From an uncultured Clostridia bacterium (lineage in GTDB: Bacteria > Bacillota > Clostridia > Christensenellales > UBA1242): a stretch of DNA of 64,000 nt. Under the pieces are notes generated by a model. That model was given only the letters and a program-made list of their open reading frames with translations. It was not told the origin of the DNA and did not search any database. This document shows positions 23,863-29,391 of the stretch, piece by piece; the first letter of the stretch is position 1, and each line of letters starts with the position of its first letter. The position numbers were made by a program, and so were the translations under genes. The stretch is from assembly GCA_934778205.1 (NCBI GenBank), contig CAKVOD010000002.1, positions 141,564 through 205,563 on the forward strand. Direction: 5' to 3'.

Positions 23863-25783
23863 AGACTTCTTCTCTAAATAGTTTAACTTTAAACATTGAT
23901 GCTTTTACAAAATAATCAAAAATTATCATTAAAGATGATGCAATAGGTATAACTATATATGGTGAATATCTAGCAAAGTTGTTTGCATTCATACCACTAA
24001 TTATATTAATTGCAAGCGTCAATAGAATTATGGATATTACGATGATTGAACGTGGTATCCATTCTTTTTTGATATTGCAAACAGGGATGCCGATTCTATC
24101 ATTTCTTATCAAAAACAGTGCGCAAACAATAGGATAAAAAATTGACACGGCAAAAATTGAAAGCACCATAATTGATAATGAATTTTGTGTTTCAGGTGTT
24201 TTGTATACAAAAAATAGTATCAACAAAAGGGCAGTGAGCGAGCCAAAAGTGATTATTGATGTAAGCAAGTTTGTCCTATTGGCGTGCACATTGTTTGATT
24301 TTACTCGCGATTTACAACTGCTGTTGTAGACGGCTATCTCTATTCCATTTTCCTCACAATCCAAAACAAATTCATTAAGCGTTTTAACTGGGGGTTCATA
24401 ATCTTCATCATTTTCATTTTTGCATAAATCATTGCTAAAGAATATATCGATTTTTTTGTGTTGTGGACGTTCAATTTCTTTTAATGTATCTTTGTTGTAC
24501 TTTGGCGGTGATGAGAAAAAATCATATTCAGAGTTTGAAAAATTGCTTTTTTTGAGGAATATATTGGCTTTGTATTTGTCCTCAACAACAACTTTATCTT
24601 TCATCAAATATTCGTTTATGTTTTTCTTAGTAACAGTGGCTTGCGGTTGTTGAGTTTGCTCCACGTTTGCTGTTTTGATTTGCGTGGAAACATCTAGATT
24701 GGCATTTTGTTGCATAGCAACACTATTGTTTGTAGAGAAGATTGACTCCATAGTTGTCGCTGGAGATTGATATTCATTTGCGCGTGGTTCTAAAATACTT
24801 ATTTTTTGTTTTTCTTCATTAGATTTATTGTCGGCAAAATCATTTGAATATTCTTTTCCGTTCAATGCAGTTCTGTCAAAAATATCAACTTTTTTGCGTT
24901 CCATTTCTCTTTCATTGTAGTCATTGTCAATGTTATCATTAGGAGTTCCAAAAAGGGTAGTTTTTGCAACATCTTTTTCAATCATATCGCCAAAAATACT
25001 GTCGTAATCAATATCATCGTTCTTGACCTCATTATTTGTTATAGTTGTGGGTCTATATAGTAGACTTAATGAGTCATCATGTGGTATAATTTCATCGTCG
25101 GACAAAAGTACTGCATCATTTTTATCATAAACTCGATGATATGTTTCAGTGGGTTGCTCTGATGAATCTATAGAGTTTGAGTCGTTTGAAATAAAGTTTG
25201 TTGATGATGTGCTATCTTTTTTGTCAAAGTTTTGCATTGGCAAGTTATCAGTATTGAGGGAGCCAGTATAATTCAAGTTTGTTGTGCTTGAAGAATTGCC
25301 AATTGCAGAATTCACTGCATCTAATTTTTCACTTGAAATATAATCAAGAATTGAGTAATTAGGGATATCATTTTCAATGACTTTTGTTTCGTCTTCATCA
25401 TTTTTTTCTTTTTTTGCTTCCTTTTCTGAGTGAGCAATTGTATTGAAAAAATCAGGTTGTATTGCAAGGGACGAAGGGGAGTTGCTAACGCTTTTGCTTG
25501 GGATATTTTCGTATTGAGAAAAATCAAGCGGGTGCTCTTCCAAATATTGTCTACCTTTCTCGGTTAGGGCAGAATATCGACGTTTACCGCCGATTTCGCT
25601 GTTTTCCCAATATGATGTAATATAACCTTCAGACTCTAGTTTATGTAACGCACTGTAAAGGCTAGGAAGTTTAATATCTGTTTGACCATTTGTAAGAGTT
25701 TTTATTGCCTTTATGATTTGCAGTCCATATAAATTTTCCGATTTTAATGTGCATAGAATTATTGCACTTACTTTTCCGCGCAT
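23861..25783 (-). CDS. PadR-family winged-helix domain fused to a long low-complexity linker and a C-terminal 4-TM membrane domain
   Basis: The N-terminal ~85 aa (ILCTLKSENLYGLQIIKAI...LPSLYSALHKLESEGYITSYW...RRYSALTEKGRQYL) is PadR-like. The C-terminal ~150 aa is hydrophobic. Confidence 0.7.
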   Translation of the reverse strand: MRGKVSAIILCTLKSENLYGLQIIKAIKTLTNGQTDIKLPSLYSALHKLESEGYITSYWENSEIGGKRRYSALTEKGRQYLEEHPLDFSQYENIPSKSVSNSPSSLAIQPDFFNTIAHSEKEAKKEKNDEDETKVIENDIPNYSILDYISSEKLDAVNSAIGNSSSTTNLNYTGSLNTDNLPMQNFDKKDSTSSTNFISNDSNSIDSSEQPTETYHRVYDKNDAVLLSDDEIIPHDDSLSLLYRPTTITNNEVKNDDIDYDSIFGDMIEKDVAKTTLFGTPNDNIDNDYNEREMERKKVDIFDRTALNGKEYSNDFADNKSNEEKQKISILEPRANEYQSPATTMESIFSTNNSVAMQQNANLDVSTQIKTANVEQTQQPQATVTKKNINEYLMKDKVVVEDKYKANIFLKKSNFSNSEYDFFSSPPKYNKDTLKEIERPQHKKIDIFFSNDLCKNENDEDYEPPVKTLNEFVLDCEENGIEIAVYNSSCKSRVKSNNVHANRTNLLTSIITFGSLTALLLILFFVYKTPETQNSLSIMVLSIFAVSIFYPIVCALFLIRNDRIGIPVCNIKKEWIPRSIIVISIILLTLAINIISGMNANNFARYSPYIVIPIASSLMIIFDYFVKASMFKVKLFREEV

Positions 25784-25930
25784 TTTTACCTCTTTTTGTG
25801 ACTAATTAATCAGGAATGTTACAACAAAATATTTGATATTTAAATAAAAAAGTATATAATTAATATAATTATATTTTACATTTTTTTATATTTTTTGTCA
25901 ATAAATTACAACATATTTTATAAAAAAAAT

Positions 25931-25984
25931 AATACACTATATATGGTGTATTCTAACTATATAATACACCATATATAGTATTTG
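25931..25984 (+). promoter_or_regulatory. double-palindrome operator/promoter cassette, copy B, between the PadR-like and ygjP-like genes
   Basis: AATACACTATATATGGTGTATT, 10 bp, AATACACCATATATAGTATTTG. TATAAT (25960-25965) bridges the spacer and the second dyad. Confidence 0.55.
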
Positions 25985-26017
25985 ATTGATATTTGACTTC
26001 AAAAAGGAATTAACAAT

Positions 26018-26704
26018 ATGAAAATTGATTACATACAACGCACCGCACGCAAAACATTAGCAATAACTGTAAATGAAAAATCGCAGGTTATTGTGAAAGC
26101 ACCCAAGTATATGTCGAATGAAGAAATCGCAAGATTCATCAAATCTAAACAGAAATGGATTGAAACAAAGGTGGGGGAAATACAAAAACAAAATCAAGTT
26201 CACAATGACTTGTTTCAGTATCGAAAGATTTTATTTTGTGGTAAAAAGTATGACGTATTGCGTGATAAAAAGGCAAAGGGCGTTTCTCTTGAGAAAGAGT
26301 ATATTTTGATGAAACCGCAGTTGACAATAAAAAAAGAAGTCAACCAGTTAGAAAAATTTTTGAAGAATTGTTGCATTGAAATCGTAGGACAACGCTTAAA
26401 ATACTTTTCAAATATTATGCAATTAGAACCCAAAGAAATGCGCTTGATAAATGCAAAGCATAGGTGGGGTACGTGTGATAGTGAAAGGGTGATATCATTC
26501 AACTGGAGGCTTGTTATGATGCCTCCCAGCATAATTGATTATGTCGTTGTACATGAGCTTGCACACATAATGGAGATGAACCATTCAAACGCATTTTGGG
26601 CGATTGTAAACGCTGTATTACCAAATATGAAAGAAACGCGTGCAGTACTAAAAAAATCAAATTTTGTTTTGCAACTATTTAGGGAAATTCCTATAACTGA
26701 GTAG
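26018..26704 (+). CDS. YgjP-like (DUF45/M48-type) zinc metallopeptidase
   Basis: WGTC...VVVHELAHIMEMNHS HExxH motif in the C-terminal part, typical of the family. Confidence 0.75.
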   Translation: MKIDYIQRTARKTLAITVNEKSQVIVKAPKYMSNEEIARFIKSKQKWIETKVGEIQKQNQVHNDLFQYRKILFCGKKYDVLRDKKAKGVSLEKEYILMKPQLTIKKEVNQLEKFLKNCCIEIVGQRLKYFSNIMQLEPKEMRLINAKHRWGTCDSERVISFNWRLVMMPPSIIDYVVVHELAHIMEMNHSNAFWAIVNAVLPNMKETRAVLKKSNFVLQLFREIPITE

Positions 26705-27061
26705 GGCAGGGAAGTTATGAGGTTTCCCATATACAAACAAATTTTTTACTACGTAACGCTTGTTGAGTCACTAAAATTTATACTGGCACTAATATTTTAT
26801 TTATAGTTTACGCATTTACGTAAATTGCAATCGTTGACAAATTATATTTCATATTTGTAATTTTGAATAAATAATACTTATTACTAGAAGATTGCACGTA
26901 GTTATTTCTTTTTGTAGGCTTAAAATGATACAATTTATAAGATTTGCAGTATTTTGGGGTAAAAAATTGAAAATTTTATATTTTTTTGTTTAAACTACTT
27001 ATTTTTTAGTTATTTTTTTAGAAAAAGGACGTAGGGCAGGACATAAGTTTATATGTATAAT

Positions 27062-27095
27062 ATCTATTCGCTAAAGACAACTTTAGCGAATAGAT
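27062..27095. other. perfect 15-bp stem / 4-nt loop hairpin in the gene desert (possible small RNA or protein-binding dyad)
   Basis: atctattcgctaaag-acaa-ctttagcgaatagat. A TATAAT-like box sits about 5 nt upstream and a T8 run lies at about 27123. Confidence 0.3.
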
Positions 27096-28585: not shown

Positions 28586-28607
28586 TTTTATAATTTAGAA
28601 AATTTGT

Positions 28608-28636
28608 TTGACATTTTTTTTGTTTTATGTTATAAT
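28608..28636 (+). promoter_or_regulatory. consensus sigma-70-type promoter for lexA
   Basis: TTGACA (28608-28613), 17-bp spacer, TATAAT (28631-28636). Confidence 0.55.
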
Positions 28637-28664
28637 CAATCAACAAAAGAAAAAGGAGTTTTTT

Positions 28665-29297
28665 ATGGCAAAAAACAATTATAAGTTAAAAGAAATACTG
28701 GAGTTTATAGCTGATTATTCAAAAAATAACGCATATCCACCAAGCATCCGCGAAATTCAAGACCAATTTGGATTCAGGTCAACTTCGACTGTTTCTTACT
28801 ATTTGAAAAAGTTGGAAGCAAATGGCGATTTGGTCAACAAAGGTCGCAAGAATAGAGCGTTGTCAATTTCCGATAGATATTTAGATGCAAACCCTATGTA
28901 CAAGCCAAAATTTTTGAATACTGATTTCTCAGTTGTTCCCCTAGTTGGAAATGTTACTGCTGGTCAACCAATTTTAGCTGAAGAAAACTACGAGGATTCG
29001 TTTTATATCCCAACAAATATGTTTCACGGCGACAACCTATTTATGCTTACGGTTATTGGCGAAAGTATGATTGATGCAGGCATATATGATGGCGACAAAA
29101 TCATAGTAAGACAGCAAAATACTGCTGAAAATGGCGAAATTGTCGTTGCATTGATTGAAAATTCTGCAACAGTGAAAACATATTATAAAGAAGATGGTAG
29201 AATACGTTTGCAACCTCAAAATCCTACTATGTCGGCAATGTATTTCGACAACATTGCAATTCTCGGCAAAGTCATAGGATTGATTCGTCAATTTTAA
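28665..29297 (+). CDS. lexA: LexA repressor (S24 peptidase)
   Basis: YPPSIREI wHTH, VTAGQP cleavage site, GESM Ser and VKT Lys. The ATG at 28665 has an AAAGGAG SD; the ORF-track start at 28608 overlaps the promoter. Confidence 0.9.
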   Translation: MAKNNYKLKEILEFIADYSKNNAYPPSIREIQDQFGFRSTSTVSYYLKKLEANGDLVNKGRKNRALSISDRYLDANPMYKPKFLNTDFSVVPLVGNVTAGQPILAEENYEDSFYIPTNMFHGDNLFMLTVIGESMIDAGIYDGDKIIVRQQNTAENGEIVVALIENSATVKTYYKEDGRIRLQPQNPTMSAMYFDNIAILGKVIGLIRQF

Positions 29298-29303
29298 CAA
29301 AAA

Positions 29304-29355
29304 AACTTTATTTAGGTATAACTCAAATGAGTCGCAACCTAGATAAAGTTTTTTA
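29304..29355. terminator. bidirectional terminator between convergent lexA and miaA
   Basis: aactttatttaggt / acctagataaagtt 14-bp stem (13 of 14) with T-runs on both strands. Confidence 0.6.
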
Positions 29356-29391
29356 TTGTTTTTTTGTTTTTTTTGCCCCGCATCTGCCCTA

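Follow-up and report, generated by a model that had tools for sequence, protein, structure and literature searches.

We analyzed a 64-kb window (the whole stretch of 64,000 nucleotides from contig CAKVOD010000002.1, assembly GCA_934778205.1) from an uncultured Clostridia bacterium whose closest relatives are Christensenellales-like metagenome-assembled genomes. The window encodes a DNA translocase of the FtsK/SpoIIIE family and a tyrosine recombinase of the Xer family, and it contains a 34-bp palindrome that resembles a dif site. It also contains many copies of a short strand-polar motif, GGGCAG or more generally GGGNAG, which an earlier annotation of the same DNA (the sequence-only reading) had put forward as resembling the FtsK-orienting polar sequences (KOPS) of other bacteria. 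There is strong support for the view that the window spans the replication terminus and dif site of this chromosome, which is about 35% GC. The main features are:

1..27061, end of the left replichore: the + strand is the leading strand and is G-rich, with 19 copies of GGGNAG on the + strand (GGGCAG in 7 cases) and a single - strand exception
9939..12650, + strand: FtsK/SpoIIIE DNA translocase of 903 amino acids with the Pfam domains FtsK_SpoIIIE, FtsK_alpha, and FtsK_gamma
27062..27095, no strand: dif-like perfect palindrome, ATCTATTCGCTAAA-GACAAC-TTTAGCGAATAGAT, of 34 bp, with 14-bp arms and an asymmetric 6-bp center, found by a scan for inverted repeats
27096..64000, end of the right replichore: the - strand is the leading strand, with 22 copies of GGGNAG on the - strand (12 of them GGGCAG) and none on the + strand
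27515..28585, + strand: XerS-like tyrosine recombinase of the Xer family, 356 amino acids, 420 bp downstream of the palindrome

Across the window, GC skew is positive to the left of the point where the motif switches strand and negative to the right. The cumulative excess of G over C reaches a plateau at 27.0-29.3 kb, with its maximum at 29210; the sequence-only reading had expected an inversion at about 27-28 kb. Gene orientation converges as well: among open reading frames of at least 100 amino acids (simple long-frame calls), 16 are on the + strand and 7 on the - strand to the left of the switch, versus 5 and 21 to the right, and all 11 tRNA genes are on the - strand. Since the skew changes from positive to negative, it argues for a terminus and against an origin. 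We considered and rejected oriC for this location: DnaA boxes are neither enriched nor clustered in the spacer at 26.7-27.5 kb, and we found no cluster of DnaA boxes anywhere in the window. The proposal that a terminus lies here, with coding bias converging on it, was therefore borne out by the direction of the skew change, by the converging genes, by the dif-like palindrome between 27034 and 28233, and by the XerS-like gene 420 bp beyond it.

To compare this region across bacteria, we used 80 homologous loci from a collection with one genome per species and 8 more from closer relatives. When the spacers upstream of the recombinase gene are aligned, the palindrome is the single conserved island in AT-rich DNA that otherwise cannot be aligned. 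A degenerate search (CTAT[TGA]CG..AAA-N6-TTT..CG.ATAG) found it in 62 of 89 related Clostridia loci, which range from 24% to 61% GC, with the consensus CTATTCGYWAAA-N6-TTTWRCGAATAG. It occurs once per locus, and once in the window; four loci have a weaker match with 3-4 mismatches, and only the one in locus L062 resembles the site. The palindrome always lies upstream of the recombinase gene, at a distance of 75 bp to 8.8 kb. The 62 loci agree in the arms and differ in the 6-bp center, which is the architecture of a core site for a tyrosine recombinase. In 42 of the 49 loci with 2 kb or more on each side, GC skew goes from positive on the left of the palindrome to negative on its right. Because the palindrome is conserved and coincides with the change in sign of the GC skew, it is very probably dif, and very probably the dif of a single XerS-like recombinase. 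Its arms are perfectly symmetric, which suggests that both are bound with the same specificity.

The best NCBIfam match of the recombinase is XerS (NF003462), with 178.9 bits across positions 3-356 of 360, which is below the cutoff of 267; the next matches are XerA (166 bits), XerC, and XerD. It also matches Phage_integrase in Pfam, and among solved structures it is closest to XerD, XerA, and XerH. The candidate catalytic residues (R201, K225, H297, R300, H323, and Y333, assigned from motifs) are invariant in 22 homologues. The gene is followed directly by lexA. We presume that the recombinase acts at the palindrome.

The arrangement is similar in several ways to XerS/difSL (PMC1914069, PMC2965235): the recombinase has 356 amino acids and XerS as its best profile, its gene is linked to a site at the GC-skew switch, and the site has inverted arms around a short center. 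It differs in that the score (179 versus 267 bits) is below the cutoff for XerS equivalogs; that the site is a perfect 14-6-14 palindrome, while difSL is asymmetric and 31 bp long; and that 420 bp separate the upstream site from the gene (75 bp to 8.8 kb in relatives), whereas difSL directly precedes its gene. The published left arm of difSL (PMC2965235) agrees with the palindrome's arm at 10 of 14 bases, which is not beyond chance, as matches with up to 3 mismatches occur at chance frequency. Given the missed XerS cutoff, the chance-level likeness to difSL, and the symmetry of the palindrome, we did not classify the system as XerS/difSL proper. XerH/difH of Helicobacter and Campylobacter and the archaeal XerA/dif also combine a single Xer recombinase with a nearly palindromic dif, and both XerA and XerH are detectable homologues of the window's recombinase, but these systems belong to other lineages, their sites have other sequences, and neither family gives the top match. 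As for the classical dif sites of XerCD systems, neither the E. coli dif nor the B. subtilis dif matches the window at up to 8 mismatches, and the same is true of difSL, in the forms of these three sequences used here; a fragment of difSL also has no match in the window.

The translocase has a clear gamma domain (FtsK_gamma in Pfam, amino acids 832-892, 77.5 bits) that aligns to the structures of the gamma domains of E. coli and P. aeruginosa. Its recognition helix reads IGYQRAARLVDAFE, versus IGYNRAARIIEQME in E. coli. In E. coli FtsK, KOPS is presumably contacted by N1296, R1300, and E1303; the corresponding residues here would be Q, R, and D, so that the substitutions would be conservative. 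The translocase gene is about 14.4 kb from the dif-like site, which puts translocase, recombinase, site, and candidate guide motifs all within one window.

A pattern search found GGGCAG at seven positions on the + strand (15233, 17638, 21338, 24229, 25567, 26704, and 27034) and at 12 positions on the - strand (28233, 29384, 31791, 33079, 33120, 35261, 44674, 44699, 47382, 48889, 53329, and 56098). One switch point fits all 19 copies, giving a ratio of 19:0 for the leading versus the lagging strand. In dinucleotide shuffles of the sequence, there were 7.6 copies on average, and none of the 100 shuffles had 19 or more. The sequence-only reading had listed 18 copies with a single switch; all 18 positions and the switch hold, but the copy at 56098 had been missed. 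Four copies are antisense to the local gene (21338, 24229, 25567, and 28233), as had been reported, while four are intergenic and 11 are sense. The match to the E. coli KOPS at 26704 and the 10-mer TAGGGCAGGA at 27032 (+) and 53327 (-) were also found as described. The copies nearest the switch, and the one that had been overlooked, are:

25567..25572, + strand: GGGCAG, antisense within the minus-strand PadR-like gene
26704..26714, + strand: overlapping pair GGGCAGGGAAG (GGGCAG and GGGAAG), whose first eight bases, GGGCAGGG, are the E. coli KOPS octamer
27034..27039, + strand: last copy of the left arm, gtaGGGCAGgac, which ends 22 bp before the palindrome and points at it
28233..28238, - strand: first GGGCAG of the right arm, antisense within the recombinase gene
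28377..28382, - strand: GGGAAG, antisense within the recombinase gene
29384..29389, - strand: intergenic GGGCAG (ataGGGCAGatg)
56098..56103, - strand: the overlooked GGGCAG, with consistent polarity

The wider family GGGNAG has a ratio of 41:1 in the window. Besides the GGGCAG copies, its members on the + strand are at 781, 1860, 2069, 4631, 12262, 15850, 17880, 22360, 23322, 24955, 25476, and 26709, and those on the - strand are at 28377, 31914, 39013, 39214, 40134, 45200, 47555, 50591, 52498, and 62432. Eleven copies are antisense to genes. Motif polarity converges on the palindrome, with the last copy on the + strand at 27034 and the first on the - strand at 28233. The exception is:

19010..19015, - strand: lone lagging-strand GGGNAG (GGGGAG), sense within the minus-strand RNase H gene

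We propose that the replichores meet at the dif-like palindrome at 27062-27095, which would probably serve the single XerS-like tyrosine recombinase encoded 420 bp downstream, and that the gamma domain of the window's FtsK/SpoIIIE would recognize (A/G)GGGNAG. The translocase would then load in the permitted orientation and pump DNA towards dif, where the Xer recombinase would resolve chromosome dimers. We have moderate confidence in this reading as a whole (a terminus, a palindromic dif, and the GGGNAG family as a KOPS-like motif read by the gamma domain of FtsK) and think that it is probably right.

Several observations weigh against it. Although GGGCAG at 19:0 is significant relative to mononucleotide composition (p = 7e-4), it ranks only 9th of 1688 hexamers in a scan of 5- to 8-mers, does not survive correction for multiple testing, and has p = 0.14 against a strand-specific Markov model of order 3, so the statistical strength that the sequence-only reading implied for the window alone was not borne out. 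GGGNAG in the window does somewhat better against the order-3 model (p = 3e-3, rank 9 of 3366), which is still not significant after multiple testing. G-rich words are about 75% leading in general, and some other words with GGG reach 88-95% (for example, AGGGGA is 88:5), so part of the skew is compositional. The motif is about ten times denser than known KOPS (about one copy per 1.5 kb here versus about one per 10-20 kb), and the recognition helix of the gamma domain differs from that of E. coli at two positions (N to Q and E to D in IGYNRAARIIEQ). Finally, all of the DNA compared is close to dif: the 64-kb window plus no more than 21 kb from any one relative, with loci reaching 10 kb to either side of the match.

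Such observations lead to the main alternative, which is that the polarity arises passively, as a by-product of the mutational asymmetry of replication, which makes the leading strand rich in G and A, together with codon and amino-acid usage in genes that are mostly co-oriented, and that no protein reads the motif. GGG by itself is already 71-74% leading, the other permutations of the bases of GGGCAG (four G, one C, and one A) are 75% leading when pooled, many hexamers with GGG are 85-95% leading, and GGGCAG is unexceptional within the window under the order-3 model. Nevertheless, we consider this explanation unlikely, in view of data from related bacteria, to which we turned because the window-only scan was not significant after correction.

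For this comparison we pooled 23 low-GC loci (381 kb, excluding the window), with the arms set by the palindrome, and we ranked 3969 families of hexamers (exact or with one N) against the order-3 strand-specific model. GGGNAG ranks first of the 3969 for excess skew (p = 1.3e-9), and it is also over-represented on the leading strand, with 226 copies versus 143 expected; neither is predicted if the polarity is a by-product of composition. An unbiased ranking of skewed words, which had been suggested along with the motif, thus places GGGCAG 9th of 1688 in the window and GGGNAG first in the relatives. GGGNAG is more frequent on the leading strand in 22 of the 23 loci, and the two arms are alike (103:12 and 123:11). 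Some of the right-arm orthologues are shared between related loci; the left arm, which is not syntenic, gives the same result. The case for a polar motif rests on these comparative data and not on the window alone.

The comparison also identifies the constrained unit. In the 23 low-GC relatives, the most polar hexamers all contain GGG, and among them are GGGTAG (56:3), GGGCAG (55:5), GGGGAG (42:4), and GGGAAG (73:11); the top 7-mers include AGGGGAG (20:0), AGGGAAG (29:1), AGGGCAG (25:1), and AGGGTAG (28:2). These words differ at the fourth base, which implies that the unit is GGGNAG. The fourth position is degenerate with some preference for C, the preceding base is preferably A or G, and there is no constraint past the final G (+7 to +10). 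So, the selected unit is the degenerate GGGNAG, preferably after A or G, and GGGCAG is only its commonest member here. Leading:lagging counts, or the leading fraction, are as follows:

GGGNAG: 41:1 (0.98) in the window and 226:23 (0.91) in the low-GC relatives
AGGGNAG: 20:0 in the window and 102:4 in the low-GC relatives
TAGGGNAG: 9:0 in the window and 43:0 in the low-GC relatives
GGG, as the baseline: 0.74 in the window and 0.71 in the low-GC relatives
GGGNA: 0.79 in the window and 0.76 in the low-GC relatives
GGGNNG: 0.82 in the window and 0.81 in the low-GC relatives
GGGNAA, GGGNAT, and GGGNAC: 0.77, 0.67, and 0.85 in the window and 0.74, 0.71, and 0.63 in the low-GC relatives

If base composition were sufficient, then words that share most of the motif should be similarly polar, but GGGNAG (0.98 in the window and 0.91 in the relatives) stands apart from GGGNA, GGGNNG, GGGNAA/T/C, and GGGNCG/TG/GG (0.62-0.82). 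Nor does composition predict the degenerate fourth position, the specificity for A at position 5 and G at position 6, or the match to GGGNAGGG, the KOPS of gamma-proteobacteria.

The polarity follows the replication arm instead of transcription, as the sequence-only reading had argued. In genes of the relatives that are oriented against replication, where the leading strand is antisense, GGGCAG is found 15 times on the leading strand and never on the lagging (sense) strand, and the counts for GGGNAG are 60 and 10. In intergenic DNA of the relatives, GGGNAG is 22:3. A leading-strand bias that persists in counter-oriented genes and in intergenic DNA is not expected if the skew is a by-product of composition and codon usage. 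We also considered the xer gene as the switch point, but this gave mixed results, which were resolved by re-centering on the palindrome. In loci with at least 1 kb between dif and xer (relatives with GC of at most 0.40), that interval has 0 copies of GGGNAG on the + strand and 13 on the - strand, so the polarity inverts at the palindrome and not at the recombinase gene.

The density of GGGNAG climbs towards dif, which the by-product explanation also does not account for. On the leading strand of the window, the density is 1.5-2 copies per kb up to 3 kb from dif and 0.3-0.6 per kb at distances over 5 kb; in the relatives, it is 0.9 per kb near dif and falls to about 0.4-0.55 per kb. In relatives with mid or high GC, the polarity of GGGNAG drops to 0.65-0.72, and in the higher-GC relatives the full octamer GGGNAGGG is itself polar (57:4).

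To our knowledge, experimental demonstrations of KOPS-type motifs are limited to a few gamma-proteobacteria, B. subtilis, and L. lactis. The known motifs are GGGNAGGG (KOPS, gamma-proteobacteria), GAGAAGGG (the SpoIIIE recognition sequence or SRS, B. subtilis), and GAAGAAG (L. lactis), and no common polar motif was found in Firmicutes (Nolivos et al. 2012, PMC3384302). The same study expects a KOPS to have high scores for skew and over-representation across the genome (criterion i) and, in the dif region, at least one copy per 40 kb (criterion ii) and at least 90% skew (criterion iii). For criterion i, the pooled dif regions of the relatives serve as a partial proxy, with GGGNAG first of 3969 families for skew and 226 copies versus 143 expected. 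The values near dif lie above the other two thresholds: we found 19:0 for GGGCAG in the window, and 41:1 in the window and 226:23 in the relatives for GGGNAG; there are 42 copies of GGGNAG (19 of them GGGCAG) in 64 kb. The motif inverts at dif, in that the G-rich strand, read 5' to 3', points at dif on both arms, and the window's genes include one for an FtsK/SpoIIIE that has the gamma winged-helix domain.

The closest parallel is the KOPS of E. coli. GGGNAG is the first six bases of GGGNAGGG, with the same degenerate fourth position, and both motifs are at least 90% leading near dif, point to dif from both arms, are denser near dif, and accompany a gamma domain of FtsK. The similarity extends to the polarity of the full octamer in higher-GC relatives. 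The differences are that only six or seven bases appear to be constrained in this low-GC genome, (A/G)GGGNAG, that there is about one copy per 1.5 kb versus one per 12 kb for KOPS, and that the host is a Clostridia bacterium, likely with a single-recombinase XerS-like module instead of XerCD. B. subtilis SRS and L. lactis KOPS are precedents for polar motifs in Firmicutes that are read by gamma domains of FtsK/SpoIIIE, and L. lactis offers a further parallel, in that its GAAGAAG is also only seven bases long and belongs to a low-GC genome with a single-recombinase Xer system (PMC3384302). Neither of these motifs is the polar motif of the window: the B. subtilis SRS GAGAAGGG is absent (0:0), and GAAGAAG (10:4 in the window and 111:40 in the relatives) does no better than composition.

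Once it is generalized to (A/G)GGGNAG, the KOPS-like interpretation is well supported in silico. The skew, the density, the flip at the palindrome, and the FtsK gamma domain all agree with the original proposal, but the unit is GGGNAG and not GGGCAG, and we infer only that FtsK binds and reads GGGNAG and that the palindrome is recombined by the neighboring recombinase. We found no description of KOPS from Clostridia or of the 34-bp palindrome in the searchable literature, although an earlier account in subscription journals is possible.

It is also conceivable, but quite improbable, that GGGNAG is a Chi-like recombination hotspot that is read by the AddAB or RecBCD of this lineage. Like GGGNAG, Chi sites are over-represented and leading-biased, and they differ between Firmicutes (PMC3384302). 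Full degeneracy at an internal base is typical of KOPS (PMC3384302). Such degeneracy is not known from any described Chi site. The Firmicute Chi sequences in the literature are weakly skewed in the window (38:19 for AGCGG and 3:4 for GCGCGTG), and other Chi candidates are GAAGCGG (5:0) and GCTGGTGG (3:0), none of which rivals GGGNAG. A skew of 91-98% together with a rise in density towards dif matches how KOPS and SRS behave in dif regions. Furthermore, GGGNAG is the 5' part of GGGNAGGG, and the octamer is 57:4 in higher-GC relatives.

That the convergence is instead a boundary other than the terminus (a large inversion or an integrated element), with the palindrome a regulatory or attachment site, would fit with a recombinase under the XerS cutoff, its varying distance from the palindrome among relatives (75 bp to 8.8 kb), and the second degenerate site in L062, but it is hardly credible given that the same palindrome and skew switch are found in 42 of 49 loci from taxa of 24-61% GC, that the flanks are housekeeping genes (ftsK, pnp, rny, mutS/L, and lexA), that inverted arms around a variable 6-bp center are the canonical shape of a tyrosine-recombinase core, that the window has no classical dif of the B. 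subtilis or E. coli type (judged by the reference sequences used here), and that insertions beside dif would be expected to vary its distance from xer.

If we return to FtsK guided by GGGNAG, the reading can be extended to a large and mostly uncultured group of Clostridia (Christensenellales-like, with some loci labelled Lachnospiraceae or Roseburia). We suggest, tentatively and with less than even confidence, that these bacteria resolve chromosome dimers by means of a 356-amino-acid XerS-like recombinase and a perfectly palindromic 14-6-14 dif, CTATTCGYWAAA-N6-TTTWRCGAATAG, a combination of which we found no description, and that their FtsK is guided by a truncated and dense KOPS, (A/G)GGGNAG, that lengthens to GGGNAGGG as GC content rises. 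If so, then the core of KOPS would be common to Clostridia and Proteobacteria and not a proteobacterial trait, and motif length would follow base composition. Polar motifs that converge on dif are expected biology and are not surprising in themselves. What this window offers is a concrete and testable motif, (A/G)GGGNAG, along with its cognate FtsK gamma domain, a candidate dif, and a recombinase within 64 kb, with support across dozens of uncultured Clostridia. The co-evolution of FtsK gamma domains and guide motifs could be tested in a gut-associated lineage for which there is no genetics. The 34-bp site could be a practical marker of the terminus in metagenome-assembled genomes of Clostridia, and the motif and the site together could serve as a check on how contigs in these assemblies are oriented.

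Near the palindrome itself, many low-GC relatives have TAGGG at 20-30 bp on one arm, pointing at the palindrome. Examples are 27032-27039 in the window and the flanks of L001, L084, L054, L068, L076, L067, and L080. On the leading strand, GGG is found 25-50 bp from the palindrome at 0.36 per arm, versus about 0.1-0.2 in adjacent bins. TAGGG in this position may be a last guide or a stop signal. Loci L002-L005 share another element, GCATAAAA(N)GGGGC(T)TT, on the + strand and 5-25 bp to the right of the palindrome, which places a run of GGG in the "wrong" orientation right beside dif.

In L062, the second degenerate dif-like site (TTATTCGTAAAATATTTGCTTTACGAATAC, with 3 mismatches) is 1.8 kb from the main site and adjoins xer (L062:7935 and L062:9801). 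A mobile element that had integrated at dif would be expected to leave such a double site. Three independent metagenome contigs with a 95%-identical recombinase (L086:1-379, L087:1-316, and L088:1-163) all end 160-380 bp upstream of the gene, within the AT-rich spacer that separates the palindrome from xer. The spacer in the window is about 400 bp longer than in L081 or L084. Both the contig ends and the difference in length may reflect DNA beside dif that varies between strains or is hard to assemble.

The gene order around the terminus (23861-36574) is conserved in L081, L084, and L086: a PadR-like gene, a YgjP-like metallopeptidase, the palindrome, xer, lexA, miaA, mutL, mutS, and miaB. Both xer and lexA read outward from dif, which puts them head-on to the replication of the right arm. 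The PadR-like open reading frame (23861-25783, - strand, 640 amino acids) has an unusual architecture, with a PadR winged helix at the N terminus (amino acids 9-83), then a long low-complexity region, and then a hydrophobic, membrane-like C terminus. This architecture is also kept in the relatives L081 and L084, at 534-589 amino acids. The tRNA genes form two clusters, 39176-39540 (4 genes) and 61419-62081 (7 genes), all on the - strand and co-oriented with replication of the right arm; the GGGTAG at 39214 falls within the gene for tRNA-Leu.

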